From Candidatus Staskawiczbacteria bacterium (lineage in GTDB: Bacteria; Patescibacteriota; Minisyncoccia; Minisyncoccales; Staskawiczbacteraceae), in the NCBI GenBank assembly GCA_041661545.1, contig JBAZUH010000001.1:19408-83407 (forward strand): DNA of 64,000 nt. The letters run 5' to 3'. The position numbers and the translations under genes are program-made. The notes below the pieces were generated by a model. That model had not been told where the DNA came from. It saw only the letters and a list, made by a program, of their open reading frames with translations, and searched no databases. Of the stretch, positions 6,447 to 55,037 are shown one piece after another. Position 1 is the stretch's first letter; every line of letters begins with the position of its first letter.

Positions 6447-6467
6447 AAATTGGTGATGGGTTGTAAC

Positions 6468-9416: not shown

Positions 9417-9460
9417 CATAATTGAAAATTTTTTATTAATAATTTATAGTTTATAATAAT

Positions 9461-9539
9461 GCGGGCATGGTCCAGCCTGGTTTAAGACGCCTCCCTGTCA
9501 CGGAGGAGATCGGGGGTTCAAATCCCCCTGCCCGCGCCA
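9461..9539 (+). tRNA. tRNA-Asp (anticodon GTC), CCA encoded
   Basis: acceptor GCGGGCA/TGCCCGC, anticodon stem-loop CCTCC-CTGTCAC-GGAGG, T arm GGGGG-TTCAAAT-CCCCC, 3' GCCA; D arm atypically long. Confidence 0.7.
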
Positions 9540-11012: not shown

Positions 11013-11371
11013 AATTTTTATATATAATATTATATAATTTTATATTAGGAACCGCATAAAACTAAGTCAACCGGGTACGCTGATATTCATGTGTTTTAAC
11101 AGATAAAATATTAAAGTCTTATAACTGTTATTTAAAGTGATATGCAGTATCATGTTATGCCTGCTTTTTCCCCTGCTCTCAGCCAAGTAAAATTGGATTT
11201 TACCGTGTTATCGCCCTGTTTAGCAGGCAAGATGTCTTTTTATAGTGCGTAAAAATTAAATAACACATATAATATTATTAAATATAAATATATAAATAAT
11301 ATTGATACTTTATAAGAATAAAATGTTATAAAATTTAATATTATTATATAAGTATTATATATAATATAGAT

Positions 11372-11737
11372 TTAATAGTGCATTTCGTAGCCTGAATCAC
11401 TTTCTTCAATAATTGGAATTCCATCAAGTCCATTTCTTAATTCTGGTTTTTTATCTAAAAGGATAAGATATTCTTCAATTATTTTTTCTTGTATTTTTTG
11501 CCACAAATCTTTATCCGCTAGCCAAAAAATTGATTGGAATTTCCCTTTTTTTGTTCTGTATGCTGGAGGAGCAACCCAATAAAGGGTATCGCTTTTATGA
11601 GCTTCGTTATTTTCTAAAATTCTAAAACCGGAGATAGAAAATGAACCAAACTTAATTGTAGCTATTGCTCGCTCAGCTCCTGTTGGATTAGATATCGCCC
11701 AAACCTTAACTGCCACCTCATTAATATTTAATTCCAT
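11372..11737 (-). CDS. SpoVG-like protein
   Basis: RAIATIKFGSFSISGFRILENNEAH...WVAPPAYRTKKGKFQSIFWLADKDLWQKIQEKIIEEY parallels the SpoVG pattern (RAIASITLD...FV.DIRVI...FVAMPS....G.F.DIAHP......KIQ.AVL.EY). Confidence 0.55.
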   Translation of the reverse strand: MELNINEVAVKVWAISNPTGAERAIATIKFGSFSISGFRILENNEAHKSDTLYWVAPPAYRTKKGKFQSIFWLADKDLWQKIQEKIIEEYLILLDKKPELRNGLDGIPIIEESDSGYEMHY

Positions 11738-11738
11738 T

Positions 11739-12017
11739 TTATTTATTTTTTGCGTTTATATTTCTAATTTTATCAATATTATTCTTACAAATACGGACAA
11801 ATTCCGCAAAAGGGAACGCCTCATTATAATGCTCATGCGAACCATTGCACATAAAATACCAGTCATTTTTAGTATCTTCAAACCAAATCACGGTGCACCA
11901 CTTATTTGTATGGTTATCAAGTAAGCAATATTTTAATACTATTTTATCTTTTTCTACTCCATACTCGATTCCTTTGGTATTCAAGAATTTTATAATTTTT
12001 GATTTTGTTAATTTCAT
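11739..12017 (-). CDS. hypothetical protein (92 aa)
   Basis: ORF in the same minus-strand operon, 1-nt spacing to the SpoVG-like gene. Confidence 0.4.
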   Translation of the reverse strand: MKLTKSKIIKFLNTKGIEYGVEKDKIVLKYCLLDNHTNKWCTVIWFEDTKNDWYFMCNGSHEHYNEAFPFAEFVRICKNNIDKIRNINAKNK

Positions 12018-12110
12018 ATTATTTTTTTTGTTAATTTTGCAGTATATCTTTTTATCTATGTTTTATAAGATGTCTATTTGTACCTTTATGGTGGGCTATT
12101 TTGAGGCACA

Positions 12111-12368
12111 CTATGTAAAATTGTTATTAAACTTTAAATTTAGGGTGTCAGAGTATGTCTTGTCGCTCAGGTTTTGGGCTATGCACCAAACTGCCCCTTT
12201 TTCTTCGTCGTTTAAATCTATTCCTTTGCGTTTCTGCATTAGCCATAAAGAAACGTTAGTTGTAGCTCTTCTAAGGTCGCACGTTGGTGCTCCTTCGCCA
12301 AAGTAATCCTTCGTGGCAATAAGAATTATTTTTTGTTTTTGGTTTAAATTTTTTGGTAAACTTCGCAT
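12111..12368 (-). CDS. hypothetical protein (85 aa)
   Basis: ORF in the minus-strand operon. Confidence 0.35.
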   Translation of the reverse strand: MRSLPKNLNQKQKIILIATKDYFGEGAPTCDLRRATTNVSLWLMQKRKGIDLNDEEKGAVWCIAQNLSDKTYSDTLNLKFNNNFT

Positions 12369-12372
12369 AGTA

Positions 12373-12561
12373 TTATTTTTTAATTATATTTTTTAATGAA
12401 AACTGTCGACCATTTACTCCTTTATTATGATTTCTCTTGTATGAATCGGGATTTTGTTTCATATCCTCGTGTAAAAGCAAATTCCAAAAGCGGACCCAGT
12501 TTTGCTCAGACTCTGTATCCCATATTCCATTTATGTTGTTATCTCTAGAATTTTTAGACAT
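12373..12561 (-). CDS. hypothetical protein (62 aa)
   Basis: ORF in the minus-strand operon, 4 nt from the next gene. Confidence 0.3.
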   Translation of the reverse strand: MSKNSRDNNINGIWDTESEQNWVRFWNLLLHEDMKQNPDSYKRNHNKGVNGRQFSLKNIIKK

Positions 12562-12622
12562 TTAAAAAACCTGATTTGTATTTCAGGTTCTTTATATAAA
12601 ATTAGCTATTGGCTAAATTTGG

Positions 12623-13345
12623 CTAAATATATTTTGGATTAATTTTTATGTTTCCTTTTCGAGTTGCATCCTTAATTATAAAATTCTTAATTCCAGTTTC
12701 TATCGCTATAGCCGTATTGATTCCGTCGCCAGCGGTATAAAACTTTCTCCAATAATCCGAAGGGTATTTTACTTTATCTATGCCGAGTTCATCCCAATCT
12801 TCTTGCACTTCTTCATAAAGCCAGTTTTTTTTCGGACTCTTAAATAAGGTTATTAGCAAGTCTTTTTGATTTTGTGCATTACTGAAATCTATTTTTTTGT
12901 TTTGATAATATAGAACATTATTTGTAAATTCCGCTACCGGCCAGACGTTTGTTTTATTTGTTATTGCATAAATAGCGTCTTTCAATTTTTTAAACTCTTT
13001 AACATTTTTAACTTTAATAAACACATGTTTAGTAAAAATTTTTGGTGGTATTAAGTTTGGGTTCATTCGAATAAGCCTTTCTTCTGGGTCATCATCTGTA
13101 AATCGTAATCTTCTGCTCCACTCCGTTTCTATCAATTCATTCATAATTTCAACACATTCTATGCCCTTGATAATGCTTTCGACTTCACTTTGATATATAC
13201 CGTTGTCTTTGAGTTGTTCTTTTGATATCTTATGTCCATACGTATCCTCATTAAAGCCCTGAATTTCTGCCTGTTCAAAAAGCAATTGGATTAATTTCCC
13301 AACTTTATCTAGGTTCTTTTGTGATAATCTTTTTATATTTAGCAT
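12623..13345 (-). CDS. hypothetical protein (240 aa), first gene of the minus-strand island operon
   Basis: long ORF, no recognisable motif. Confidence 0.5.
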   Translation of the reverse strand: MLNIKRLSQKNLDKVGKLIQLLFEQAEIQGFNEDTYGHKISKEQLKDNGIYQSEVESIIKGIECVEIMNELIETEWSRRLRFTDDDPEERLIRMNPNLIPPKIFTKHVFIKVKNVKEFKKLKDAIYAITNKTNVWPVAEFTNNVLYYQNKKIDFSNAQNQKDLLITLFKSPKKNWLYEEVQEDWDELGIDKVKYPSDYWRKFYTAGDGINTAIAIETGIKNFIIKDATRKGNIKINPKYI

Positions 13346-13473
13346 AAACTAATATTGTTTAATGTTGCTCCTAAATTAGGATTTTTTCAAGTTTTGGGGT
13401 GGAAAGTGCTAAAAATAAGTAGTATAGTAAAAGTAACAATTTAATAATGATTGCCTAAACTTCAAATTAAAAT

Positions 13474-14097
13474 TTGAGGCATGGCACAAAATACCCATCA
13501 AAGATATTGAGCTCCACGCTCAGCGTACTCTTTGATGGGTCTTATTGGGAAACTAATAGGTGCTGGGCTGGAGCTCTATGTGTTTCCACGCCAGCAACAA
13601 ATGGCATGGATTATAAAAAGTATTATTTTTTAGATAACTATTTGGAAGAAGTCAGAAGCAATTTTGAAAGGGGCTATTTAACACCCGAAGAATTTTTTTG
13701 TATAGTGATTTGGAAAGCCAATAGGGCGAAGACAAAAATTAAAAAAAGGTTACTTGAAGGGGGAGATATAAAAAAGGCGGTTAAGGAATTAACAAGCGAT
13801 ATTTATAATGCAGATGGGCTAGAAAGTAAATTGCAAGTTTTAAAAGATAGAGGGTTTTTGCTTCCAATGGCTACAGCAATTTTAACAGTTTTATATCCAA
13901 AAGATTTTACTATTTATGATGTTAGAGTTAGAAATTATTTTGGATTAAAGGAAATTTATAGCGCTAAAAATTATTTTTCTGATTTTTTGCCAAAGGTCAA
14001 AGACTTTGCTAAACAACATAATCTCAGCTTGCGTGACGCTGACAGATATTTATGGGGCAAGTCTTTTTATAAAGACTTAGAGGATTTAGTAAGATAG
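13474..14097 (+). CDS. hypothetical protein (alternative start at 13606, MDYKKYY)
   Basis: ORF divergent from the minus-strand operon; no motif recognised. Confidence 0.45.
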   Translation: MRHGTKYPSKILSSTLSVLFDGSYWETNRCWAGALCVSTPATNGMDYKKYYFLDNYLEEVRSNFERGYLTPEEFFCIVIWKANRAKTKIKKRLLEGGDIKKAVKELTSDIYNADGLESKLQVLKDRGFLLPMATAILTVLYPKDFTIYDVRVRNYFGLKEIYSAKNYFSDFLPKVKDFAKQHNLSLRDADRYLWGKSFYKDLEDLVR

Positions 14098-14315
14098 GTT
14101 TTAATTTTTTAAAAAGGAATTTATAATAAGCCACACAGGTAAATATCTTATGAAAAAAAATCCTAAAATATTAGCTTCAATAATAGATGAATTATTAGGA
14201 TACTTGATTGCTTTTTTTGATTGGCTTAATTATAAAGAAAGATATATTAAGTTCATTTTATTTGTTTCAATTGTGTCGCTGATATATATTCTAATTGAAT
14301 TTATCACATAAATAA

Positions 14316-26202: not shown

Positions 26203-27431
26203 AATTAAAAGATATATTAGAAGAAACATTTTTAGCGCTTTCATCAAATAAAGCCAGAACAGGTTTAACAATTTTGGGTATTGTTATTGGAATTAGTTCT
26301 GTAATTGTTATGGTGTCTGTAGGGCAAGGTGCTACAAAATCAATTCAAACCAGTATTGAATCAACCGGTTCTAATCTTTTAATGATAACGCCAGGAGCTA
26401 CAAGAAACATAGGATACTCGGCACGTTCAGCTGGAGGAACAGCACAAACGCTTACCCTTGAAGATGCCAATGCAATAGCAAGCCAAGTTTCTGCGGTTCA
26501 ATATATGGCCCCACAAATTACTGGAAGATACCAGGTGGTGTATAGAGGTAACAATACAAATACTTCAATAATAGGAACCGACGATATTTATACTCAAGTA
26601 AGAAATTTAAGCGTTGCTGAAGGGGTATTTATAACTACCCAAGATGTTGATAGTGCCTCTAGGGTGGCAGTTTTGGGGCCTACAGTTGTGACGGATTTGT
26701 TTGGAGTAGATGCGGTAGCTAGTGATGCTATTGGTCAAACAATAAAAATTAATAAAATGCAGTTTCAGATTGTAGGAGTAACTAGCGCGAAAGGGGGAAC
26801 TGGATTTCAGAATCAAGATGATAGGATTTATATTCCATATACTGTTTCGCAAAGATATTTTACGGGCAATAAGTATTTATCAGAAATAGATTTACAAATT
26901 GCTAGTTCTGATTTGATGACATTGGCTCAGGATGACATTACAAGTTTATTATTAGAACGTCATAATATTATAGATTCCGCATCAGCTGATTTTACAGTTC
27001 AGAATCAGGCAGATATTTTATCAAGTATTTCAAGCGTGAGTCAAACATTAACAATTTTACTTGGAGCAATTGCCGGAATTTCTTTGTTAGTAGGTGGAAT
27101 TGGTATTATGAATATGATGCTTACCACAGTCACAGAAAGAACAAGAGAAATAGGCCTTCGTAAAGCTATCGGAGCAAAAGCAAAAGATATCACATCACAG
27201 TTTTTAACAGAAGCAGTTGTTTTAACTTTTTCTGGCGGAATAGTCGGAGTTTTTATTGGTTGGATAATTTCTTGGGGTATAAAATATTTTAATTTATATC
27301 AAACAGAGGTTTCGTTGTTATCAATAGTTTTAGCAGTTGTAGTTTCTGGCGCCATAGGAATTATTTTTGGATATTATCCTGCCAAAAGGGCTGCTAAATT
27401 AAATCCTATAGAGGCATTGCGTTATGAATAA
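26199..27431 (+). CDS. ABC transporter permease, FtsX/MacB-like
   Basis: N-terminal TM, large periplasmic domain, C-terminal FtsX-type 3-TM region. Confidence 0.75.
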   Translation: MKLKDILEETFLALSSNKARTGLTILGIVIGISSVIVMVSVGQGATKSIQTSIESTGSNLLMITPGATRNIGYSARSAGGTAQTLTLEDANAIASQVSAVQYMAPQITGRYQVVYRGNNTNTSIIGTDDIYTQVRNLSVAEGVFITTQDVDSASRVAVLGPTVVTDLFGVDAVASDAIGQTIKINKMQFQIVGVTSAKGGTGFQNQDDRIYIPYTVSQRYFTGNKYLSEIDLQIASSDLMTLAQDDITSLLLERHNIIDSASADFTVQNQADILSSISSVSQTLTILLGAIAGISLLVGGIGIMNMMLTTVTERTREIGLRKAIGAKAKDITSQFLTEAVVLTFSGGIVGVFIGWIISWGIKYFNLYQTEVSLLSIVLAVVVSGAIGIIFGYYPAKRAAKLNPIEALRYE

Positions 27432-27453
27432 TAATTAATAAAAAAATAAATAT

Positions 27454-27867
27454 ATGAAAAAAATACAAGTTATAACACTTATAATTATTATAATAATTAT
27501 AATAGCAGGTGGGTCTTTCTATGGAGGAATGATGTATGGAAAAAATAAAAATTCTAATTTAGGCCCCAACGGAAGCAATTTTCAAACAAGGATTAATAGG
27601 CCAGGAGATAATGGCTCAAATTTTATTTTAGGAGAAATCTTATCTAAAGAGGGTGATAATATTATCTTAAAGTTATTAAATAACGCAGGTTCAAAAATAA
27701 TTTTTTATTCTGAATCCACACAAATAAATAAACAGGCTATAGGAAATGCAGAAGATTTAGGGGTTGGAACGCTAGTTAGTGTAACTGGCACAACTAACTC
27801 TGATGGGAGCATAACGGCTCAAAGCATACAAATAAGGCCAGCTGGCGAGAACAAACCAAAGTTATAA
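27454..27867 (+). CDS. small secreted/membrane-anchored hypothetical protein
   Basis: poly-Ile N-terminal TM; 137 aa. Confidence 0.45.
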   Translation: MKKIQVITLIIIIIIIIAGGSFYGGMMYGKNKNSNLGPNGSNFQTRINRPGDNGSNFILGEILSKEGDNIILKLLNNAGSKIIFYSESTQINKQAIGNAEDLGVGTLVSVTGTTNSDGSITAQSIQIRPAGENKPKL

Positions 27868-27982
27868 AATTAAGGTTAATAAATAGCCGGCGTTTTTTTG
27901 TTGTAATTAATTGCCTTGCAATACGGCATATAGTGTATAGCTCTTAAATTACGAATAATAAAATAAATATAATATAAATAAA

Positions 27983-28345
27983 ATGGAATCTTCTTATAAC
28001 TCTCCAACTACAAAGCCAATATATAAAGGTATTCAAATTATCTGGTATTTGTTGGTTTTAATTGAGGCATTTTTGGCTCTTCGTTTTCTTCTAAAAGCAC
28101 TTAATGCAAATGCTTTTTCTGATTTTGTTAATCTTGTATACTTAACAACGCAATTTTTTATTGCGCCGTTCCTAAATATATTGGGCAAAACTCAGATTGA
28201 AGGAATCACCTTTGAATGGACCACTTTAATTGCTATGCTTGTTTATTGGTTTGTGGCTTGGGCAATGGTCAAGTTGCTTTCAATAAGTAAAACTGTTTCA
28301 ACTCCCGAAGCAGCAGAAAAACTTAATAAAGAGGAGGAAGAATAA
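27983..28345 (+). CDS. YggT-like membrane protein (tentative)
   Basis: LRFLLKALNANAFSDFVNLVYLTTQFFIAPFLNIL resembles YggT/Ycf19 repeats. Confidence 0.3.
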   Translation: MESSYNSPTTKPIYKGIQIIWYLLVLIEAFLALRFLLKALNANAFSDFVNLVYLTTQFFIAPFLNILGKTQIEGITFEWTTLIAMLVYWFVAWAMVKLLSISKTVSTPEAAEKLNKEEEE

Positions 28346-28346
28346 T

Positions 28347-28607
28347 ATGTCAATATTAGAGATATCACAAATAATATTTAATTTTATAATATCGTTTGCG
28401 GCAATAATTATTACGATATGGATTATTTTTGTTGCTTACAATTTAATTAGGTTTATTAATGCAATTAAGAAACTTATGATTGCTGTTGATAAAGGAACAT
28501 CGGAAATTTATGAGAGAGTAAATAAATTTTTAGAGAACATTTTCAATTTTTCCTTTATTAGCAGATTTTTTAGAAAAGATAATGTAAATGAAAAAAATAA
28601 AAAATAA
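28347..28607 (+). CDS. small membrane hypothetical protein
   Basis: one or two TM helices, 86 aa, 1-nt spacing to the upstream gene. Confidence 0.4.
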   Translation: MSILEISQIIFNFIISFAAIIITIWIIFVAYNLIRFINAIKKLMIAVDKGTSEIYERVNKFLENIFNFSFISRFFRKDNVNEKNKK

Positions 28608-28621
28608 TTAAAAATAATATT

Positions 28622-28984
28622 ATGACAAAAGAAAACAAATTCAAATTTTTAGAAGGAGCGGTTGCTGGCATTGCGCTCGGCGTTGCAGCTAGCATGTTTT
28701 TATCATCAAAAAAAGGTAAAAAGATGATGGATAATATAGAGGATATAACAGCTGATTTTTATAAAAATATTTCTCCTAAGTTAAAAAAAATGAAAAAAAT
28801 GGGAGAAAAGGAATACGCTCTTTTTATGGAAAATGCAGTTGAGCAATATATTAAAACAAAAAAAATATCAGAAGATATGGCAAAACAGCTTGCTGTGAAG
28901 GCTAAACAGTCTTGGAAGCACTTTGCTACCTACTTGAAAGGAAAGGGTGGTTCTAAAACTGTATTGATCCGCAGAGTTGGATAG
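28622..28984 (+). CDS. YtxH-like membrane-anchored protein
   Basis: N-terminal LEGAVAGIALGVAASMFL helix then a K/E-rich helical region, typical of YtxH. Confidence 0.45.
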   Translation: MTKENKFKFLEGAVAGIALGVAASMFLSSKKGKKMMDNIEDITADFYKNISPKLKKMKKMGEKEYALFMENAVEQYIKTKKISEDMAKQLAVKAKQSWKHFATYLKGKGGSKTVLIRRVG

Positions 28985-29038
28985 AATTAGCATGTTAGTA
29001 TAAAGGCCGATTAAAAAAATAAATTAAATATCAATAAT

Positions 29039-29275
29039 ATGTCAACAGAAAATAATAATTCAGGCAATACGGGAATTGGAGGATTAAATTTAGTGGCAAC
29101 ACTTTTTTTAGCCATTCTAGTTATTGGAGTAATTGTTTTATTTTTTATATATGGTTTACCAATGATTAAAGATTTCCAAAATTTAAAAAGTGGTGATGGA
29201 ATAAATGTAAATGTTGAAATGCCTACGCCAACAATTCCCCAAGATACAACCCCAGAGCCAACTTTAGTTCCATAG
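29039..29275 (+). CDS. small membrane protein
   Basis: 78 aa, one TM, Pro/Thr-rich tail. Confidence 0.35.
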   Translation: MSTENNNSGNTGIGGLNLVATLFLAILVIGVIVLFFIYGLPMIKDFQNLKSGDGINVNVEMPTPTIPQDTTPEPTLVP

Positions 29276-29299
29276 ATAAAACAAAAAATCAATTAAATA

Positions 29300-29325
29300 A
29301 AAACCCGCCTTTAAAGGCGGGTTTT
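29300..29325 (+). terminator. rho-independent terminator (AAAACCCGCC-TTTAAA-GGCGGGTTTTG)
   Basis: perfect stem plus T-run. Confidence 0.7.
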
Positions 29326-29389
29326 GAGTTGGATGGGGGTGTTCTGAACTATTGACAAACGCAACCCTGTTGCATTAAGATATATAAAT

Positions 29390-29839
29390 ATGATAAATAT
29401 AAAAGAAATATTATTAAGGCTAAAAAAAGAAGGTTTTCGCTCTACTACAATACGTAAGTCTATTTTAGATTTATTTTATAAATTTAAAAAACCCCTTTCT
29501 AGTCAAGATATACAAAAATATCTTAAGCAAAAAAACATAAAGGCCAACAAGACAACAGTTTACAGAGAATTAGATTTTTTAAAAAACCAAAATATTATAG
29601 AAGAGTTTCAGCTTGATGATAAAATTAAAAGGTATGAAATTTTATCTAGTCATCATCATCACACAGTTTGTATAAAATGTAGAGAAATTAAGTGCATAGA
29701 GTTTAGCAAAGACCTTGAAAGCCAAGAAAAAGAAATAGAAAAAAATAATAAATTTAAAATAATTAATCACTCGCTTGAGTTTTATGGATTATGTCATGCC
29801 TGTTGGCGGGCAGGTCATAAATGCCAGGCAGTGAAATAG
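29390..29839 (+). CDS. Fur-family transcriptional regulator (Zur-like)
   Basis: winged-helix N-terminus, HHHH and CxxC...CxxC metal sites. Confidence 0.75.
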   Translation: MINIKEILLRLKKEGFRSTTIRKSILDLFYKFKKPLSSQDIQKYLKQKNIKANKTTVYRELDFLKNQNIIEEFQLDDKIKRYEILSSHHHHTVCIKCREIKCIEFSKDLESQEKEIEKNNKFKIINHSLEFYGLCHACWRAGHKCQAVK

Positions 29840-30588
29840 TTAAGATAAATATGGTTTTATTAAACATATTAATTGCTTGTTTTTTAATAAGTTTGTGTGT
29901 TTGGATAGCTGTTATGTTTTTATTTTTTAAGCATGAAACACTATCTAAAATAACAATGTTTTTAGTTTCTCTTTCTGCAGGAGCATTAATAGGTGGTGCT
30001 TTTTTGCATTTATTACCAGAATCGGCTGAAAGACTAGAGCCCGAAAAGTTATTTTTTATTGTACTATTAGCTTTTGTTATTTTTTTCCTAATTGAAAAAA
30101 TGTTTCATTGGAGACATTGCCATAAAGAAAATTGCGAGATTCACTCTTTTGGTTATATGAATTTAGTTGGAGATTCTTTGCATAATTTTATTGATGGATT
30201 AGTAATTGCAAGCGCCTTTTTGGTTGATTTTAAGCTAGGAGTAGTTACAGCTCTTGCCATAGCTTTGCATGAAATTCCGCAGGAAATAGGCGATTTTGGA
30301 GTTTTAATACACGCGGGATTTAATAAAACAAGAGCATTGGTATTAAATTATATGGTTGCATCAACGGTTATTTTAGGGGGCATTGTGGGATATTTTGCGT
30401 CTTTTTATATGGATGGTGCAATAGTATATCTTTTGCCTATAGCCGCAGGCGGATTTATTTATATTGCAGCCTCTGATTTAATGCCAGAAATAAAAAAAGA
30501 AAGTAATTTTAAAAAGTCGGTTATATCTTTTAGTGTATTTTTATTGGGAATTATATTAATGTTTGTTGTAAAATTTTTAGATCGCTAA
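29821..30588 (+). CDS. ZIP-family metal (zinc) transporter, ZupT-like
   Basis: HNFIDGLVIASAF and ALHEIPQEIGDFGVL ZIP signature helices; overlaps the Fur gene. Confidence 0.8.
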   Translation: MPGSEIVKINMVLLNILIACFLISLCVWIAVMFLFFKHETLSKITMFLVSLSAGALIGGAFLHLLPESAERLEPEKLFFIVLLAFVIFFLIEKMFHWRHCHKENCEIHSFGYMNLVGDSLHNFIDGLVIASAFLVDFKLGVVTALAIALHEIPQEIGDFGVLIHAGFNKTRALVLNYMVASTVILGGIVGYFASFYMDGAIVYLLPIAAGGFIYIAASDLMPEIKKESNFKKSVISFSVFLLGIILMFVVKFLDR

Positions 30589-30661
30589 AAAATAAAAGCC
30601 TTCTCTTTATTGAGACGGTTTTTTGGTTGCTTGCCTGCTGGTAGGTTGGTATAATTAATTA

Positions 30662-31870
30662 ATGAAAAAGATAAAAAAATATTTAATAATTGCGCTGGTA
30701 ATATTATTTGTAATTTTGGTTGCTTCAATTGCGGGGTGGATTTTTTTGTCAAAATTTTTTATTGATTCAAAAAATATACAAATAGAAAATACTCAAGAAC
30801 TAACACCAATTAAAAATAATAATGACACAACAACTATTTATGGAGTAACAATGAGAAATGTGTGTTTTGATAAATTTGAAGATTTTGTTAAAAATTATAG
30901 TTCAGATTATTCAAAATGTTTAGTTGATTTTAATTTTGATCAAGGGCTTTGCAGTGGTTTTAATTTAGAAGAAGAAGGATTGGCTGATATAAACGTTGTT
31001 ATTATTTTAGATGCTTCAGGATCTATGGCCGAAACAGTTGGGGGGCAAAGTAAAATGAATATTGCTAAAAAAGCTGTGTCTAATTTTTTAATTAACATGC
31101 CAAGAGGAGTAAATACCGGGCTTATAGTGTATGGACACATGGGCTCTGGTGGATATTCTGGTAAAGATATATCTTGCTTGGGTATTGAAGAAGTAGTTAA
31201 GTTGGGCACTAATAATAGTAGTAATATTATTAGTGCGGTAAATTCTTTTCAACCCAAAGGTTGGACACCAATATCTAAATCTTTTGATTTTGCTAAAAAT
31301 ATTTTTGTTGAAAAAGGAGTAAAAAAGAAAAATTATTTGGTTTTAGTTTCTGATGGTATAGAGTCTTGTGATGGTGACCCGCTAACATCGGCTACTAATC
31401 TTAAATTAGGAGTAAAAGATATTAAATTAAATGTTATTGGCTTTACTGCAGATACAACTACGCAAGATTTTTTAAAAAATATTGCAACTAATGGTGGGGG
31501 CACTTATTTAACTGCTGATAATTCATCTAGCATGACCAAAGCTTTTAATGACCAGCTTTTAATAATTAAAAAAGAGTGCTTAAGAATGAGTGTTGCAAAG
31601 TCGGCTTTAGCAAATAAAGCTAATAATTTTAATAACTTAGATTGCTGGCTTGCTGAGTATAAAAAAGAAGTAGATAATTTGAATAAAGTAGCTTCAAGCG
31701 ACCCAATTAATACTTATTGTAATATTGAAATATCTAATGTGTTAAGCGCTAGAAACACAGAATTTTGGTATAAAAAACAGGCGTTAGAAGAACAGAATAA
31801 TTTTATTTATGAAAAAATTAAACTTGAGCTTAGTGGCCAGTTGCAATATTTAAACAGCCTAAAAAAATAA
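30662..31870 (+). CDS. membrane-anchored von Willebrand factor A (VWA) domain protein
   Basis: VVIILDASGSM MIDAS motif; N-terminal TM. Confidence 0.75.
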   Translation: MKKIKKYLIIALVILFVILVASIAGWIFLSKFFIDSKNIQIENTQELTPIKNNNDTTTIYGVTMRNVCFDKFEDFVKNYSSDYSKCLVDFNFDQGLCSGFNLEEEGLADINVVIILDASGSMAETVGGQSKMNIAKKAVSNFLINMPRGVNTGLIVYGHMGSGGYSGKDISCLGIEEVVKLGTNNSSNIISAVNSFQPKGWTPISKSFDFAKNIFVEKGVKKKNYLVLVSDGIESCDGDPLTSATNLKLGVKDIKLNVIGFTADTTTQDFLKNIATNGGGTYLTADNSSSMTKAFNDQLLIIKKECLRMSVAKSALANKANNFNNLDCWLAEYKKEVDNLNKVASSDPINTYCNIEISNVLSARNTEFWYKKQALEEQNNFIYEKIKLELSGQLQYLNSLKK

Positions 31871-32016
31871 AGTAATAAAAAACTGCTTGTTATAGCAGAA
31901 AATTTGTGGGAGCCCGGTGGTGGTTACACCGGGCTCCATTCGTGAGGCGGAGTGTGTTATCTGCTTTGCGCAAGTTTTTCGGCCGATTTCAGCCAATAAT
32001 CCTTAGCAGATGGTCT

Positions 32017-32039
32017 GCGGTCACTTGACCGCATTTTTT
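32017..32039 (+). terminator. terminator-like hairpin GCGGTC-ACTT-GACCGC followed by ATTTTTTG, inside the GC-rich noncoding region
   Basis: read directly. Confidence 0.5.
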
Positions 32040-32558
32040 GCTCCCCGTAGGCGGGAGCTACGTCCGTTTTGGCGCCCTCATGAGCGCGCAACCGCAAACT
32101 TCAGGGCTACGCGTTGTTGAGGATCGCCGGCGACGTGGGCAAGACGAGCGGGCCCTGGTTCACGGCGGCCTTCTTCGCGCGAGCGGTGGTGAGCATCGCC
32201 GGGATCGTGGCGATGTTGTTGGCGTTGAGCACGGTGGCTCGATGTCGGTGTTTCATGCCGTTATTGGGGTTGGGGTTGGTTTCTTTCGAGGGTCGCCTTT
32301 TCGGGGCGAGTTGGGCCTACACTCGTAGCCACAACCATAAATTCCTAAAAAATTTAGAACCTTATGGTTGTGGCTACAAAAGAGATAATTGTTAAAGAGC
32401 TATTACTAACATTATATTAGTTTATAAAAAAACAAATATAGTGTCAAGACTTTAACAGATTTTGTAATAAATTTACATATTTTTTGTAGTAATATAATAC
32501 AGATAAAATTAAGCCTAAGATCGAGCAATAAGGCCAATTGTGTGATATATTATAGAAT

Positions 32559-33143
32559 ATGAACGATTCGTATTTGGATAAAAAAGATGAAGAAATAGTC
32601 TTGTTAGTTCAATCTGGGCAGGTTGAACCTTTTAACATACTAATAAATAGATATGAAAAGAAAATGGCGCGATATGCGGGTAGATTGTTAAGCAATAGAG
32701 ATGATATTCAAGATGTTGTTCAAGATATATTTACAAAAACTTATGTAAATATAAAAAGTTTTGATGTTAATAGAAAGTTTTCTTCATGGCTGTATCGCAT
32801 TGCTCACAATGAAATTGTAAACGTATTTAAAAAAAACAAGAAAAACTTTTTACCTATTTTTGATGTAGATATATTTTTTCCTCAGCATGCTAAGAAAAAC
32901 TATGAGGAAATAAATAAAGATTTAGAACGCAAAGAAATGCAAAAAATGATATCTGTTTATTTTGAAAAACTTGGAGAAAAATATAAAGAACCAATAGCTT
33001 TATATTATTTAGAAGATCTTAGTTATAAAGAAATTTCTGAAGTTATGCAAATACCTGTAGTAACAGTTGGAGTAAGAATTAAAAGAGCAAAAGAAATGTT
33101 AAAAAATATTTTTAAAGAACAAGGATATGAATATGGAAAATAA
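32559..33143 (+). CDS. RNA polymerase ECF-type sigma factor
   Basis: sigma-70 region 2 (DVVQDIFTKTY...SWLYRIAHNEIVN) and region 4 (YKEISEVMQIPVVTVGVRIKRAKEMLK). Confidence 0.85.
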   Translation: MNDSYLDKKDEEIVLLVQSGQVEPFNILINRYEKKMARYAGRLLSNRDDIQDVVQDIFTKTYVNIKSFDVNRKFSSWLYRIAHNEIVNVFKKNKKNFLPIFDVDIFFPQHAKKNYEEINKDLERKEMQKMISVYFEKLGEKYKEPIALYYLEDLSYKEISEVMQIPVVTVGVRIKRAKEMLKNIFKEQGYEYGK

Positions 33144-33882
33144 TGAAAAACAAAACAATATAGCAGAACGAATAATAGACAAGATTAAAGAAGGAGAGAT
33201 AAAAATGAAGCCCAAGGCTTATTTTATAGCTAGAATGGTTTTATTTGTATTGGGAATTACTGTTTTATCTTTATTCTTAATATATATTGTTAGCTTTATT
33301 ATTTTTTCATCAAGAATTAGTGGAGGTTGGTTTTTGCCACAATTTGGATTTTCAGGAATAGGCATTCTTTTAAGATCTTTGCCATGGCTGTTAATATCTT
33401 TATCAATAATTTTAATTATTTTCTTAGAAATTTTTGCAGAACATTTTTCTTTTATATATAAAAAAGCAACGGTTTATTCTTTGTTTGGCATTATTGGAAT
33501 AGTTTTATTGGCAGGTTTTATGGTGGGGTTAAGTCCGTTTCATACTAGCTTATTTCAGTCGGCCAGAAATGGGGAACTTCCCTTAATAGGATCTTTTTAC
33601 GAAAGACAAGGAGCCCCTAGATTTAATAATTTTCATAATGTTAGTGTTTCATCGGTGGGTGATAAAGAATTTACTGTTATTAACCCTCGCGGAGAAATAT
33701 TAAGGGTTATTACAGAAGATCAAATAGACCAGGAACTTAAAGAAGGAGATTCTATTTTATTAATTGGCCAAAGAGATGGAGATATAATAAAATTTAAACA
33801 AATGAGGAAGGTAAATGAAGATGCTAATTTTTTTCCTAAGCATCGACCAGGAAAAATGATGAGGCCCCCTTTTCTGAAATAA
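33127..33882 (+). CDS. membrane protein, putative anti-sigma factor (by position)
   Basis: overlaps the sigma gene stop; several TM helices; no motif. Confidence 0.35.
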   Translation: MNMENNEKQNNIAERIIDKIKEGEIKMKPKAYFIARMVLFVLGITVLSLFLIYIVSFIIFSSRISGGWFLPQFGFSGIGILLRSLPWLLISLSIILIIFLEIFAEHFSFIYKKATVYSLFGIIGIVLLAGFMVGLSPFHTSLFQSARNGELPLIGSFYERQGAPRFNNFHNVSVSSVGDKEFTVINPRGEILRVITEDQIDQELKEGDSILLIGQRDGDIIKFKQMRKVNEDANFFPKHRPGKMMRPPFLK

Positions 33883-33977
33883 AATTTGTAATAAAAGCTG
33901 TTTTTTATTGTAGTAAAGAGTGAAGGCAATAAGAAGCCTTTCAAAGGTCGGGCCTATAATAATTAAAAAATATAAAT

Positions 33978-34502
33978 ATGATAAAAAATAAATATTTTAG
34001 ATACGCAACCATTGGAGCAGTAACTTTAGCAACTTTAGGAATAATTGCTGTTGGCACTGTTTCTGCAGCCACTACTACACAAAACAGCCCGATGTCTAAT
34101 TTAGTAAGCGCAATTGCTCAAAGGTTTAATTTAAATTCTTCGGATGTTCAAAAGGTATTTGATGATCAGCAAATACAAATGCATAGTCAAATGGTGCAAA
34201 AAAATACAGACAAGGTAAATGAAGCGGTTGCTAATGGTAAAATAACTCAGGATCAAGCTAATAAAATTTTAGCTAAAAGAGCTGAGCTAGAAGCACAAAG
34301 AGTTGCTTTTAGAGCAAGTTTAGAAGGTAAAACAAAAACAGAGATACAAACAGCAATGAAAGCTCATAGAGATACTCTTTTGCAATGGGCAAAAGATAAT
34401 AATATTCCAGAACAATATTTAATGATGTTTGGAGGGTTAAAGGGTGCAGGAGGAGGATTTGGATTTGGTCGTCATGGATTGGGTGGATCTAATCAAAAAT
34501 AA
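33978..34502 (+). CDS. secreted hypothetical protein
   Basis: signal peptide, helical Q/A-rich, Gly-rich tail. Confidence 0.45.
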   Translation: MIKNKYFRYATIGAVTLATLGIIAVGTVSAATTTQNSPMSNLVSAIAQRFNLNSSDVQKVFDDQQIQMHSQMVQKNTDKVNEAVANGKITQDQANKILAKRAELEAQRVAFRASLEGKTKTEIQTAMKAHRDTLLQWAKDNNIPEQYLMMFGGLKGAGGGFGFGRHGLGGSNQK

Positions 34503-34511
34503 TTAATTTAT

Positions 34512-34542
34512 AAAAACCGCTTTTTAAGTAAAGCGGTTTTTG
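34512..34542. terminator. bidirectional terminator AAAAACCGCTTTTTAAGTAAAGCGGTTTTTG
   Basis: perfect stem with A- and T-tracts. Confidence 0.7.
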
Positions 34543-34557
34543 TTTATAATTTAATGG

Positions 34558-35118
34558 TTGACTTTAATACTATTTAGTTGTAATTTATATATGCCTGCAA
34601 TGAGTGTTGCGGGCACACAACAGCACGTTGACAAAACACAGAAAGCAACCATGAAAATTCCAAATGTTTTAGATTTTTTGACTAAGGCCGAAAGAGACCG
34701 GGCGATTTTTGTTAGGCCAACGCTCGGAAAAGAGCTAGAGGCCGTTGATGGCATAGGCCATAATTTTTTTCCGCAATGCTTGTTTTTGTCAGCCAAGCTG
34801 ATGACTTTGCAAAAGGGGACTGTGATTCCTTTCCATGCTCATGCGAATAAGGAGAAATTCTATCTTCTTTTGGATGGCAATAACTTGCAAGTGACAATGG
34901 CGACAAATGAAAAAGGTCGCCATGAAATTCGCACAGTGGAACTAATGCGCGGAGACGTGCTTTTTATCCCAACAGTGTGTCCTCACTGTGTGAGATACTG
35001 TCCACAACATTATCCCGACCCCTGCAAGGTGCTTGTTATTGCGTCGTCTCAAAATTCAGATGATATTTATTGGGAAGACGGAGTTGAGGCGCTGATTTCT
35101 AATGGATCTAGCCAGTAA
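34558..35118 (+). CDS. cupin-domain protein (start uncertain; moderately higher GC)
   Basis: GTVIPFHAHANKEKFYLLLDG...GDVLFIP matches the two cupin motifs; candidate promoter TTGACT-17-TAATTT at 34556. Confidence 0.55.
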   Translation: MTLILFSCNLYMPAMSVAGTQQHVDKTQKATMKIPNVLDFLTKAERDRAIFVRPTLGKELEAVDGIGHNFFPQCLFLSAKLMTLQKGTVIPFHAHANKEKFYLLLDGNNLQVTMATNEKGRHEIRTVELMRGDVLFIPTVCPHCVRYCPQHYPDPCKVLVIASSQNSDDIYWEDGVEALISNGSSQ

Positions 35119-35194
35119 TCTTTTTTCGCACATACCCTGAGGCAACAACCACAGGGCTCTTTTTTTATTTTTGATTATTTGATAATATAGAAGC

Positions 35195-35734
35195 ATGGAA
35201 AAACATAATATTATAATTTATTCAACGCCAACTTGCCCTAATTGTGCTAAAACTAAAAAATATTTTAATGACAATAATGTAGAATTTGAAAATATTGATG
35301 TAAGTCAAAATCCTGATGCAATTGCTAAAATGATAGAAAAAAGTGGACAAATGGGAGTGCCTGTTATTGATATTGACGGTCAGTTTATAGTAGGTTTTCA
35401 ACCAGGATTATTTAAGAAAATATTAGGACTTGGTTCGGCAACAGATTTAGATTTATTAATTGCCAATGGAGCAGTTGTTGTTGATGTGCGCACATCTGCC
35501 GAATATGAGCAGGGCCATATGAAAGATTCATTAAATATTCCGCTAGATCAACTTGAAGATCATTTATTAGAATTGAATAAAAATAAACCAATAATTGTTT
35601 GTTGTGAATCGGGAAGTAGAAGTGGTGTTGCTAAGCAAATATTAGAAGCTAATGGATTTGGCGATGTATATAATGGTGGCAATTGTAATAATCTTAAAGA
35701 ATCTGTAGGTGGAGGATCTTGTCCTGCAGAATAA
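35195..35734 (+). CDS. glutaredoxin-like / rhodanese-domain fusion protein
   Basis: IIIYSTPTCPNCAKTKKYF thioredoxin-fold CxxC; C-terminal rhodanese with active-site CCESGSRS. Confidence 0.75.
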   Translation: MEKHNIIIYSTPTCPNCAKTKKYFNDNNVEFENIDVSQNPDAIAKMIEKSGQMGVPVIDIDGQFIVGFQPGLFKKILGLGSATDLDLLIANGAVVVDVRTSAEYEQGHMKDSLNIPLDQLEDHLLELNKNKPIIVCCESGSRSGVAKQILEANGFGDVYNGGNCNNLKESVGGGSCPAE

Positions 35735-35758
35735 AATTTAAAAATAATTAAATAATAT

Positions 35759-36373
35759 ATGAAAAAAGTAATTTTAATATCAATAATTATTATAGTTATT
35801 ATTTTAATAGTTGTTGGGGTCATATATATTATGCAATCTCAGCAAAATGGAGGGAGTAGTCAATTTTTAAATAATAATTCAAATATAAAAAATATGAAAC
35901 ATATTGTTACAATAAAAACAAACGTAGGAGAAATTAAATTTGCAACTTATGATGCCGATGCTCCAAACACAGTTAAAAATTTTATAACTTTAGCTGAAAA
36001 AGGGTTTTATGATGGAGTGATTTTTCATAGAGTTATTCCTGGATTTATGATTCAAGGAGGAGATCCAACAGGAACAGGAACTGGAGGACCTGGCTATCAA
36101 TTTGCTGATGAGTTAAATCCAGAAACAGAATCTTATAAAGCAGGATATGTAAAGGGTGTAGTTGCTATGGCTAATGCTGGGCCAAATACTAATGGCAGTC
36201 AATTTTTTATAATGGTTGCTGATTATCCATTACCAAACAGTTACTCTATTTTTGGTAAAGTAATTTTTGGACAAGAAATAGCAGAGGCAATTTCTAATTT
36301 AAAAACTGATGACAATGATAAGCCAATATCTAAGGTAATAATGGAAAAAGTTACTGTTACAGATAGTGAATAA
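35759..36373 (+). CDS. cyclophilin-type peptidyl-prolyl cis-trans isomerase, membrane-anchored
   Basis: FHRVIPGFMIQGGDPTGTGTGGPG signature; N-terminal TM. Confidence 0.9.
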   Translation: MKKVILISIIIIVIILIVVGVIYIMQSQQNGGSSQFLNNNSNIKNMKHIVTIKTNVGEIKFATYDADAPNTVKNFITLAEKGFYDGVIFHRVIPGFMIQGGDPTGTGTGGPGYQFADELNPETESYKAGYVKGVVAMANAGPNTNGSQFFIMVADYPLPNSYSIFGKVIFGQEIAEAISNLKTDDNDKPISKVIMEKVTVTDSE

Positions 36374-36402
36374 ACTTTTTAAAAATTAGATTATAAACCA
36401 GG

Positions 36403-36425
36403 GTCGCTTTTTAAGCGACTTTTTG
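36403..36425 (+). terminator. rho-independent terminator (GTCGCTT-TTT-AAGCGAC TTTTTGG)
   Basis: read directly. Confidence 0.6.
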
Positions 36426-36440
36426 GTAAAATTATAAAAT

Positions 36441-38984
36441 ATGCAACAAGATAATAATTTTTATGGTCTTAGTCAAAAAGACGCAGATATAATTTTAAGC
36501 AAAGAAGGGTTTAATGAATTGCCTTCTCAAAAAAGACAAAATGGTTTTGTGATTTTGTTTAAAATTATGTCAGAGCCTATGTTTATTCTTTTAATAGGAG
36601 CCGGGTTGGTCTATTTTTTCATTGGAGACATAAAAGACGCGCTCTTATTGGGGTTTTCAGTGTTAGTAGTTATTGCGATTACATTTTATCAAGAAAGAAA
36701 AACAGAAAAAACTTTAGAAGCTTTAAGGGATTTATCAAGCCCCAGAGCTTTAGTTATTAGAGACGGCGAACATAAAAGAATTGCTGGCAGAGAAGTGGTT
36801 AAAGGAGATATTGTTGTGATACGTGAAGGAGATAGGGTCCCTGCTGATGGAGTTATTTTGTCATCTGAAAATCTTTATGTAGACGAATCTTTGTTAACTG
36901 GAGAATCAATTTCTGTAAGGAAAACTGAATGGGACAAAGAATTAAAACAACAAAGGCCCGGTGGAGATAATTTGCCTTTTATTTATTCTGGTTCTTTGGT
37001 AACAAGTGGTAGATGTATTGCAAAAATAACTTCTACTGGATTAAATACAGAAATTGGGAAAATTGGTAAAAGTTTAGAAAAAATTAAATATGAAGACACA
37101 TTGTTGCATAAAGAAACTGCAAAAATAGTTAGAACAATAGCTATAATAGGGGCTATTTTATGCGTGTTAGTGATTGCTTTCTATATATTGGCAAAAGGGC
37201 AATTAGTTGATGGGTTTTTAGCAGGAATTACTTTGAGTATGGCAATATTGCCAGAAGAGTTTCCTATTGTGCTTTTAATATTTTTAACTTTGGGAGCGTG
37301 GAGGATTTCTAAAAAAAGAGTGCTTACCAGAAGAGCCGCAGCAATAGAAACACTGGGAGCTGCAACTGTGCTTTGTGCAGATAAAACAGGCACATTAACA
37401 TTAAATAAAATGGAATTAAGTAGCTTGTATTCACAAGGAGATTTTTATGAATTAAGTAATTTAGCTTCTACAGAGTTGTCTATAAAATTTAAAGAACTTT
37501 TAGGATATGGAGTTTTAGCTAGTCAAAAAGATCCATTTGACCCAATAGAAAAAGAATTAAACAAAATGGGAAGCTTATATCTTAGGCATTTTGACAGAGA
37601 ATATCATAATTTTAAATTAGTAAAAGAATATCCTTTGTCAAAAAAGATGTTGGCGTTGTCTCATGTGTGGCAATCTAAAAATAATAATAATTTAATTGTT
37701 GCATGTAAAGGAGCGCCAGAATCTGTTTTAGATTTATGCCATATAGAAAACAACAAAAAGAAAGAATTATTAAGTGTAGTAGAAGGAATGTCTAAAAAGG
37801 GCATGAGAGTTTTGGGTGTAGCTCGTGCAAGATTTTTAGGAAACAATTTACCAACAGATCAACACGATTTTAAGTTTGAATTTTTAGGTCTTTTAGGTTT
37901 TATTGATCCTATAAGAGCTTCCGCTCCTGATGCGGTTAAAGAAGTTTATGAGGCGGGCATGAGAGTTATTATGATTACAGGAGATTATCCTGGCACCGCT
38001 CAATATGTTGCTAGAAAAATTGGAATAAAAAATTCAGAAGAATATTTAACAGGAGAAGATTTAGATAATATTAGTCATCTTGAATTGAGAGAAAAAATAA
38101 AAACAGTTAATATTTTTGCTAGAATTATTCCAGAACAAAAATTACTGATAGTAAATGCCCTAAAAGCAAATAACGAAATAGTGGCTATGACTGGTGACGG
38201 AGTAAATGATGCGCCAGCATTAAAAGCTGCTCATATTGGTATTGCCATGGGTGAAAGGGGAACCGATGTTGCCCGAGAAGCTTCGGCGTTGGTTTTATTA
38301 AATGATGATTTTTCTTCTATTGTTGACGCAGTTCGTTTGGGCAGAAGAATATATAACAATTTAAAAAGGTCTATGGGCTATCTTTTGGCAGTTCATGTGC
38401 CCATTGCAGGGATGTCTGTTTTGCCTTTATTTTTTGGATTGCCCATTGTTCTTTTGCCAGCACACGTTGCTTTTTTGGAGCTTATTATTGACCCTGCTTG
38501 TTCAACAGTTTTTGAATCAGAAAAAGAAGATAAAAATATAATGAAAAGACCTCCTAGAAATATTAGGCACCCCATGTTTAATTCTGAAACAGTGCTGATT
38601 AGTGTAATTCAGGGGGCGGGTGTTCTAGTAGCTATTTTTATATTATTTATTTTTGCCGTAAAAACCGGTAGAAGCGAGTTAGAAGCCCGCTCAATAGCAT
38701 TTTTATCTTTAGTTATAGCGAATATTTTATTAATTATTATTAATTTATCTTGGAGAAAAAATGTTCACAAAATTATTTTATCTGCTAATAAAATATTATT
38801 TTTTGTAGTTATTGGAGCTTTAATTTGTTTGTCAGCTGTTCTTTATGTTCCATTTTTTATGAATCTTTTTCATTTAGCATCATTAGATTTTACGGACGTA
38901 ATTTTTATTGGAGTAGCTATGTTTTTAAGTTTATTATGGTTTGAAATATTAAAAATAATAAGAAATAAAAATCAGATAAATTAA
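36441..38984 (+). CDS. cation-transporting P-type ATPase (type II, Ca2+/Mg2+-like)
   Basis: CADKTGTLTLN phosphorylation site, MITGDYPGTA, GDGVNDAPALKAAHIGIAMG. Confidence 0.9.
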   Translation: MQQDNNFYGLSQKDADIILSKEGFNELPSQKRQNGFVILFKIMSEPMFILLIGAGLVYFFIGDIKDALLLGFSVLVVIAITFYQERKTEKTLEALRDLSSPRALVIRDGEHKRIAGREVVKGDIVVIREGDRVPADGVILSSENLYVDESLLTGESISVRKTEWDKELKQQRPGGDNLPFIYSGSLVTSGRCIAKITSTGLNTEIGKIGKSLEKIKYEDTLLHKETAKIVRTIAIIGAILCVLVIAFYILAKGQLVDGFLAGITLSMAILPEEFPIVLLIFLTLGAWRISKKRVLTRRAAAIETLGAATVLCADKTGTLTLNKMELSSLYSQGDFYELSNLASTELSIKFKELLGYGVLASQKDPFDPIEKELNKMGSLYLRHFDREYHNFKLVKEYPLSKKMLALSHVWQSKNNNNLIVACKGAPESVLDLCHIENNKKKELLSVVEGMSKKGMRVLGVARARFLGNNLPTDQHDFKFEFLGLLGFIDPIRASAPDAVKEVYEAGMRVIMITGDYPGTAQYVARKIGIKNSEEYLTGEDLDNISHLELREKIKTVNIFARIIPEQKLLIVNALKANNEIVAMTGDGVNDAPALKAAHIGIAMGERGTDVAREASALVLLNDDFSSIVDAVRLGRRIYNNLKRSMGYLLAVHVPIAGMSVLPLFFGLPIVLLPAHVAFLELIIDPACSTVFESEKEDKNIMKRPPRNIRHPMFNSETVLISVIQGAGVLVAIFILFIFAVKTGRSELEARSIAFLSLVIANILLIIINLSWRKNVHKIILSANKILFFVVIGALICLSAVLYVPFFMNLFHLASLDFTDVIFIGVAMFLSLLWFEILKIIRNKNQIN

Positions 38985-53148: not shown

Positions 53149-53305
53149 AAATAATTAAACAATAAACCGGGCATTAGAACTCGGTTTTTGCTTGCATTTT
53201 TTATTTTTTGTTGTAATCTAATTATATTAGCCCAAGACAGTTCTTGGGTTATTGTTATTTGAAAACTTTCAACCAACCAACACCAACCAACCAAGGAGAA
53301 AAACC

Positions 53306-55012: not shown

Positions 55013-55037
55013 GCTAAGTTGGTAAATTTTCGTTATG

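Follow-up and report, generated by a model that had tools for sequence, protein, structure and literature searches.

The described systems closest to the locus considered here are horizontally acquired islets harbouring an ORFan gene (ORF, open reading frame), which typically measure kilobases and are associated with tRNA genes or integrases. The locus is a GC-rich island of 431 nt in a 64-kb stretch of DNA (64,000 nt; called the window below, with all coordinates referring to it) from a metagenome-assembled genome (MAG) of Candidatus Staskawiczbacteria, a lineage of the candidate phyla radiation (CPR). It resembles such islets in a sharp step in G+C content, in foreign codon usage (G+C at third codon positions, GC3, of 0.90 versus 0.24 in native genes), in its intergenic location, in having no homologue found, and in the presence of another foreign-looking gene, purH, in the same window. 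It differs from them in its small size, in showing neither a tRNA/integrase association nor an identifiable donor, and in having edges that coincide with exceptionally stable hairpins. The reading favoured here, with a probability of about 0.55, is that the island is recently acquired foreign DNA holding an orphan 49-codon gene, or the remnant of one, within a plausible transcription unit on the minus strand.

Homology-facilitated illegitimate recombination (HFIR) and short-patch double illegitimate recombination (SPDIR), by which foreign DNA is integrated in short patches or illegitimately during natural transformation, are known from Acinetobacter and Streptococcus. Such events could explain a sub-kilobase insert devoid of mobile genes in a lineage supposed to acquire DNA from its surroundings; the locus departs from them in that there is no donor sequence for junction microhomology, and this organism would have to be competent. 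The donor would be a high-GC organism of roughly 65–70% G+C, and the part of the island outside the ORF resembles the intergenic DNA of such a donor, with many GC hairpins.

Base composition and coding signature

The island and its ORF are delimited as follows.

31906–32336: GC-rich island, 431 nt, 60.1% G+C, with flanks of 27.2% (maximum-likelihood fit with two change points)
32107–32256, minus strand: 49-codon ORF MKHRHRATVLNANNIATIPAMLTTARAKKAAVNQGPLVLPTSPAILNNA, G+C at codon positions 1/2/3 (GC1/2/3) of 0.56/0.48/0.90

The whole window has a G+C content of 33.2%, and in a 100-nt sliding window the GC-rich stretch extends over 31881–32340 with 57.8% G+C. A first-pass annotation made from the sequence had described a segment of about 500 nt with about 60% G+C, which the change-point fit bears out. 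Both the G+C content of the island and the GC3 of its ORF lie far outside the host distribution, in agreement with the compositional definition of horizontally acquired DNA. Among the origins offered by the first-pass annotation, acquisition from a high-GC source is the one favoured by this foreign base composition together with a period-3 signal in the segment 32104–32241.

In that segment one phase is occupied by G or C at 44 of 46 positions (96%), compared with 52% and 57% in the other two. The signal has a permutation p ≤ 1e-5, and no other segment of this kind in the 64 kb is as extreme. Native ORFs of the window (48 ORFs) have mean GC1/2/3 values of 0.43/0.33/0.24, with a GC3 standard deviation of 0.07 and a maximum of 0.49. 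The periodicity sets in at the minus-frame stop codon and tails off within about five codons of the ATG, so that it matches the borders of the 49-codon ORF, as expected of a protein-coding sequence. The ORF was annotated as a gene by the Prokaryotic Genome Annotation Pipeline (PGAP) and is deposited at NCBI as MFA6189935.1 (locus tag WC711_00245, on a 737,971-nt contig of the Candidatus Staskawiczbacteria MAG).

A plus-strand ORF, 32114–32395, has its third-position phase in common with the minus frame. The minus strand is favoured over this shadow frame by the limits of the periodicity, beyond which the plus frame continues for 46 more codons without it, by GC1 exceeding GC2, which holds in the minus frame only, by the leucine codons, and by the PGAP call. 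As read from the sequence, all leucine codons in the periodic part of the plus frame are TTG, which is rare in high-GC genomes, and the minus frame uses CTC. The plus frame is hydrophobic, with a maximum Kyte-Doolittle mean of 2.39; this is the expected by-product of reading antisense to a gene with purine-rich first codon positions (RNY, purine-any base-pyrimidine).

The first-pass annotation regarded the segment as noncoding and the 49-codon frame, which is present as it described, as unsupported; this understates the case, since the periodicity fits the frame and a gene has been called there. It also pointed to the lack of ribosome-binding sites. The ORFs indeed lack them, but this is uninformative: a search of the 22 nt before the start of 49 native genes of the window revealed no Shine-Dalgarno motif in any of them, and the native leaders (49 gene starts) are A/T-rich and G-poor. 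In a genome without Shine-Dalgarno sequences a missing ribosome-binding site carries no weight against coding. The anti-Shine-Dalgarno motif is reported to be absent in about half of Parcubacteria (PMC9297842), and the window genes fit a Parcubacteria lineage without it. The segment is thus probably not purely noncoding; about one third of the island (32107–32256, minus strand) would code for protein, now or until recently. A and T are nearly absent from the third positions of the ORF, which implies little amelioration, a concept reportedly due to Lawrence and Ochman, and hence either recent acquisition or strong selection.

The ORF is an orphan at every level searched. An exhaustive phmmer search of its 49-residue product against 1.84 billion representatives returned only the protein itself, which forms a singleton cluster. 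Upstream of the ATG, the minus frame has no stop before a TAG that lies barely within the island (69 codons from stop to stop), and the corresponding 69-residue sequence found only itself in an index of 5.8 billion protein clusters, in which the 103-residue plus frame had no relative either. Among about 15 billion proteins there was neither a homologue attesting conservation nor a match to some high-GC organism's gene, the blastx outcome that would have refuted the first-pass annotation. Pfam, PHROGs, PADLOC and NCBIfam gave no match to the island ORF; tblastn of the island frames and blastn of the island itself against plasmids and phages gave nothing, nor did scans of JGI metagenomes and IMG/VR with the back-translated peptide.

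Within the ORF lies a 28-nt direct repeat (32111–32138 and 32183–32210, 79% identity, 72-nt spacing), seen in the protein as an internal 24-residue repeat (IATIPAMLTTA and LPTSPAILNNA). The first repeat copy is loosely reminiscent of the NxLxxLPxxL part of a leucine-rich repeat, for which Pfam gave no support. Asparagine makes up 12% of the 49-residue peptide. A single-sequence AlphaFold (AF2) model of the 49-mer consists of one helix, residues 12–34, with a pLDDT (predicted local distance difference test) of 79.

Hairpins and a candidate minus-strand transcription unit

The elements around the ORF, ordered by position, and the two neighbouring genes are as follows.

31883–31898, minus strand: terminator-like hairpin CTGCTATAACAAGCAG followed by TTTTTT, outside the left island edge, 13 nt past the stop codon of the VWA gene
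31909–31937: left-edge hairpin GGAGCCCGGTG/CACCGGGCTCC, 11-bp perfect GC-rich stem, 7-nt loop
32016–32039, plus strand: intrinsic-terminator-like hairpin TGCGGTCACTTGACCGCA (stem 32016–32033) followed by TTTTTT
32040–32062: two overlapping alternative GC hairpins, GCTCCC-N7-GGGAGC and CGTAG-N7-CTACG, read from the sequence
32257–32324, minus strand: putative 5′ leader of 68 nt, which includes the small stem-loop TCGCC-N7-GGCGA
32259–32288, minus strand: a G-poor CA-rich tract GAAACCAACCCCAACCCCAATAAC, at the end of the leader before the ATG
32325–32377: right-edge hairpin, 25-nt arms with 22 paired positions (88%), 3-nt loop, 36% G+C
32419–32447, minus strand: sigma-70-like promoter match TTGACA-17-TAAACT (10/12, a consensus match only), 41 nt upstream of the right hairpin
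30662–31870, plus strand: VWA-domain gene, left neighbour of the island
32559–33143, plus strand: gene for a sigma-70 factor of the extracytoplasmic function (ECF) type, right neighbour of the island

No inverted repeat of the 64-kb window is longer or more stable than the right hairpin, whose outer 16 bp, formed by GTAGCCACAACCATAA at 32325–32340 and TTATGGTTGTGGCTAC at 32362–32377, are perfect. With –26.8 kcal/mol for the right hairpin and –24.3 kcal/mol for the left one, the two are the most stable simple hairpins of the window, and they are located at the two edges of the island, the left one within 3 nt of the border. Among 1000 dinucleotide-preserving shuffles of 31880–32400, a perfect stem of at least 11 bp occurred in 0.4% and one of at least 16 bp in none. 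The first-pass annotation had recognised both structures, placing the left one 1 nt (31908–31936) and the right one 7 nt (32332–32384) away from their actual positions, and the terminator-like hairpin it reported is confirmed, with the T-run extending to 32039. A GC stem-loop with a T-run, as in intrinsic terminators, is found at 32016–32039 on the plus strand, the first canonical plus-strand terminator 3′ of the VWA gene, and at 31898–31883 on the minus strand. On inspection of the sequence, the two large edge hairpins have no adjoining T-run on either strand and are therefore not intrinsic terminators.

Hairpins of this kind are familiar from high-GC bacteria, as intrinsic terminators or as tail-less "I-shaped" structures. 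The GGAGCCCGGTG/CACCGGGCTCC stem recurs exactly in more than 119 genomes, mostly high-GC and largely of Actinomycetota, and the island hairpin at 32016–32039 is a canonical hairpin with a T-run. The likeness is one of type and not of origin, for the genomic matches have only the stem in common and similarity ends there, with none in the flanks; the left stem as a clue to the source of the island was rejected on these grounds as a generic high-GC hairpin. Another candidate concerned TTGTGGCT as a DNA uptake sequence: it lies in both big hairpins and has 9 copies in the window versus 1.9 expected. It was dismissed, the other copies having no common context and the 8-mer not being over-represented under a Markov model.

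The arrangement of these elements makes a minus-strand transcription unit around the 49-codon ORF plausible. Transcription would start at the promoter-like site 32447–32419 and pass through a 41-nt spacer into the right hairpin (32377–32325, 25-nt arms), which would form a 5′ stem-loop of the transcript. The 68-nt leader, ending in the CA-rich tract 32288–32259, would follow, then the ORF from the ATG at 32256 through 49 codons to the TAG at 32107, and a 3′ untranslated region (UTR) of about 200 nt containing the hairpins 32062–32040, 32033–32016 and 31937–31909. The transcript would end at the hairpin CTGCTATAACAAGCAG with its T6 run (31898–31883), giving an RNA of about 530 nt. The very stable stem-loops near both RNA ends would resist exonucleases. 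A leader devoid of structure would suit initiation without Shine-Dalgarno pairing and, because the organism initiates in this manner, could permit translation of a largely helical 49-residue orphan peptide. On the plus strand, the terminator at 32016–32039 would now end the VWA transcripts.

The 5′ part of this predicted transcript invites comparison with 5′ stem-loops that stabilise mRNA or serve as RNase III sites, such as the Bacillus ermC and aprE leaders and the SP82 stabiliser. The island similarly has a long near-perfect stem-loop between the promoter-like site and the ORF, as well as a strong 3′ hairpin. It differs in that transcription is predicted to begin about 30 nt ahead of the stem and not at the stem foot.

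A parallel islet and the genomic setting

The window contains only one other small GC-rich island (6021–6460, 51% G+C, plus strand). Its features, and those of the foreign-looking purH, are listed below.

5905–5933, plus strand: perfect promoter match TTGACA-17-TATAAT, followed by a 38-nt spacer
5972–6030, in plus-strand order: hairpin with 25-nt arms, the second-longest inverted repeat in the window
between this hairpin and the ORF, plus strand: CA-rich leader of 51 nt
6082–6357, plus strand: 91-codon orphan ORF, GC1/2/3 of 0.58/0.46/0.62
6420–6447, plus strand: terminator
53252–55012: purH (AICARFT/IMPCHase), 50% G+C, GC3 of 0.49 versus 0.24 in native genes

The product of the 91-codon ORF is likewise a singleton, with no match in Pfam, PHROG, PADLOC or NCBIfam and none in the metagenome or viral scans; Rfam found nothing in this island. 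A tblastn similarity of the ORF to Roseomonas plasmids (E = 0.1) was set aside as noise, as it crosses a stop codon and falls mostly outside annotated genes. purH was probably acquired horizontally. It is preceded by a 5′ hairpin (53228–53251), shorter than those of the islets, and has a GC-rich terminator of its own at about 55037–55068; its leader is of the CAACCAACC type (53268–53297), and the CAACCAACCAACACCAACCAACCAAGGAG leader holds the only clear Shine-Dalgarno sequence of the window. Together, purH (50% G+C) and the 91-codon island 6021–6460 provide precedent in the window for foreign stand-alone units of higher G+C content.

The islands 31906–32336 and 6021–6460 have a common layout, consisting of an AT-rich promoter, about 40 nt of spacer, a hairpin with 25-nt arms, a CA-rich leader of 50–70 nt, an ORF of foreign composition and a terminator, of which purH shows a weaker version. 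The 5′ regions of the two islets and purH gave no convincing alignment. An intergenic island of about 290 nt with about 56–60% G+C is also found in another Candidatus Staskawiczbacteria MAG (L009:130–430, contig JAUYMP010000051.1, GCA_030699395.1). It follows a promoter-like site, TTGACA-18-TACATT, contains the direct repeat TCCGTTTCATC twice, and ends with a hairpin and a T-run; it matches neither Rfam nor a tRNA or transfer-messenger RNA (tmRNA), and has no similarity to either island of the window. It is very unlikely that the shared layout represents a new route by which CPR bacteria capture short foreign, possibly host, DNA beside long palindromes and express it as stabilised mini-transcripts.

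The window otherwise has the usual chromosomal genes of CPR bacteria (MurJ, LepA, malic enzyme, RsgA, a MacB-type ABC transporter, Fur, ZIP). The site of the island is intergenic, between the VWA gene and the ECF-type sigma factor gene. A scan of GTDB genomes with the VWA protein found nothing, and the best VWA orthologue from a protein search is 59% identical; the gene neighbourhoods differ, with synteny not conserved.

It is worth mentioning some further features of the window. A group I catalytic intron (RF00028, 77 bits, E = 8e-18) is located at 8051–8301, between a gene for a beta-CASP/metallo-beta-lactamase (MBL) RNase (6468–7874, minus strand) and an unannotated 230-residue ORF (8404–9096). 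Genes for tRNA-Met and tRNA-Asp (9343–9539) are directly followed by a large serine recombinase (9498–11012, minus strand), a SpoVG homologue and a LOOT RNA (RF03000, 13452–13575, 74 bits); the region 9343–14100 may be an element integrated at a tRNA site.

Competing explanations and significance

The island could instead be a native, lineage-specific structured noncoding RNA gene of about 450–530 nt on the minus strand, its G+C content kept up by selection for folding as in tRNAs and rRNAs. AT-rich signals resembling a promoter and a terminator enclose the GC-rich body, a second island of the same layout exists in the window (6021–6460), and the other Staskawiczbacteria MAG contains an unrelated GC-rich promoter-to-terminator island (L009:130–430). 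Folding of 31895–32395 is better than that of shuffles on both strands (z = –8.05 on the minus and –5.18 on the plus strand), as is folding of the interior without the end hairpins (z = –3.95 and –2.25, respectively), but much, and for the whole segment most, of the z-score stems from a few perfect palindromes foldable on either strand. Moreover, RNA structure does not explain a period-3 pattern with G or C in one phase at 96% over 138 nt. The structured-RNA option of the first-pass annotation found no backing in Rfam 15, which at the gathering threshold gave no match in the island (and, elsewhere in the window, the group I intron, LOOT RNA and three tRNAs), and in a permissive E-value search of 31700–32600 returned only microRNA and small nucleolar RNA (snoRNA) noise, the best hit having 24 bits versus a threshold of 74. 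ARAGORN found no tmRNA in the island. The three islands have no mutual sequence similarity, and with no homologue found there is no covariation to call upon, which leaves a native RNA gene doubtful. An 11-mer, CCGGGCUCCAU, common to the island and E. coli M1 RNA, raised the possibility of RNase P, which was rejected as no Rfam RNase P model scored at E ≤ 10. TIGR-Tas (tandem interspersed guide RNA) systems have been reported in Staskawiczbacteria as arrays in which tigRNA units bearing boxes C and D are repeated in tandem, with a Nop-domain tas gene alongside (bioRxiv 10.64898/2026.09.09.750476); no box C (RUGAUGA) is found in 31860–32420, tandem units are lacking, and no Nop domain was found among the ORFs scanned. 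The protein-family scans (Pfam etc.) for transposases, integrases, reverse transcriptases and Nop domains covered about 34 ORFs of the window. A type I toxin–antitoxin-like module, in which a minus-strand mRNA for a small peptide would have its 3′ UTR overlapped by a convergent plus-strand RNA ending at 32016–32039, would fit the small ORF and its long 3′ UTR; foreign DNA frequently brings in modules of this kind. The overlapping plus-strand segment 31906–32039 folds well (z = –4.56), and the layout recalls the 3′-overlapping type I pairs of Bacillus. However, the Kyte-Doolittle mean of the 49-mer over 19 residues reaches 0.88 at most, so that the peptide is not hydrophobic and has no transmembrane helix; no promoter-like site precedes the plus-strand segment, PADLOC, Pfam and NCBIfam gave no matches, and the hydrophobicity of the plus frame is the antisense by-product already mentioned. 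A toxin–antitoxin module is thus a far-fetched explanation.

The hairpins at the edges also suggest a mobile or captured cassette: a non-autonomous element of the insertion sequence IS200/IS605 type, such as a palindrome-associated transposable element (PATE) or a relative of repetitive extragenic palindromic (REP) sequences, an integron-like cassette, or DNA captured at a fragile palindrome. The two strongest hairpins of the window bracket the island, one no more than 3 nt from the left border and the other at the right border, and the hairpin 5972–6030 adjoins the island 6021–6460 on the promoter-proximal side of its ORF; this hairpin and the right one exceed all other inverted repeats of the 64 kb in length, and the right one begins with the tetranucleotide GTAG, as REP elements do. 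The left and right hairpins are, however, unrelated in sequence, the right one is single-copy in the window, the hairpins of the two islands do not align, exact hairpin patterns had no matches in viral contigs, and no target-site duplication is visible. The scanned ORFs include no Y1 transposase (Y1_Tnp), as expected for IS200/IS605 or for REP sequences with their associated tyrosine transposases (RAYT), no TnpB/OrfB and no integron integrase, the only recombinase being the serine recombinase 21 kb away. With an attC cassette of integrons the island shares a small, promoter-less-looking ORF beside a long imperfect palindrome; unlike in such cassettes, the hairpin is 5′ of the ORF, there is no array, and no complementary R″/R′ sites or core pair (RYYYAAC ... 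GTTRRRY) flank either hairpin, a single GTTGGGC (32310) near the right one having no complementary partner. A template repeat of a diversity-generating retroelement is equally absent, blastn at word size 7 finding no second copy of the island in the window and the scans no reverse transcriptase. For the mobile-element end proposed by the first-pass annotation, no repeat copies in the window, no target duplication and, among the ORFs scanned, no transposase were seen, and a cassette of any of these kinds is unlikely. As to an assembly chimera or contaminant insertion, the jump in composition is extreme and no homologues were found, and the Logan assembly breaks 90–110 nt beyond the right hairpin, where contig L001 ends (32490) and contig L002 (window 32470–38119) starts, with an overlap of only 21 nt. 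Nevertheless, the separately built L001 (SRR18595301) corresponds to 27096–32490 with 0 mismatches, crossing both island junctions contiguously with the VWA gene, so that the chimeric assembly against which the first-pass annotation had cautioned was not found; the break lies in AT-rich native DNA and not at the island border, and a chimera would require two false joins of unrelated genomes without a common repeat. It is barely credible. The break region 32470–32490, about 95 nt outside the right hairpin, contains the near-repeat TTTTGTAATAA/TTTTGTAGTAA; low coverage or micro-heterogeneity in front of the sigma factor gene may have caused the interruption.

Several points weigh against the preference for recently acquired foreign DNA with an orphan gene. 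With no donor or homologue at the protein or DNA level, foreign origin rests on composition alone, and no empty site can be demonstrated because the VWA orthologues, none of them above 59% identity, have other neighbours. An asparagine content of 12% is unusual for the proteome of a high-GC organism, and the lone helix predicted by AlphaFold says little. The promoter and terminator are consensus matches only, and weak ones as evidence, with four promoter-like sites in the 1-kb region versus 2.4 expected. Finally, the GC-rich body fits neatly between an AT-rich promoter, a hairpin and a terminator, which random insertion does not predict and which a native GC-rich RNA gene would explain just as well.

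The island is real and statistically striking, a modest curiosity and not a new system, and it may be a neutral remnant. The gene-acquisition routes of CPR bacteria are poorly known. If the island is indeed recently acquired foreign DNA with an orphan gene, it would be a further orphan mini-gene gained by horizontal transfer, of use mainly as a sign that an ultra-small CPR bacterium has taken up DNA very recently. It also calls for caution in annotation, as in genomes without Shine-Dalgarno sequences the absence of a ribosome-binding site does not argue against coding. The layout of a hairpin with a foreign ORF, if it recurs genome-wide, would make the island more important, as it would point to a specific mechanism by which CPR bacteria capture or express foreign DNA.

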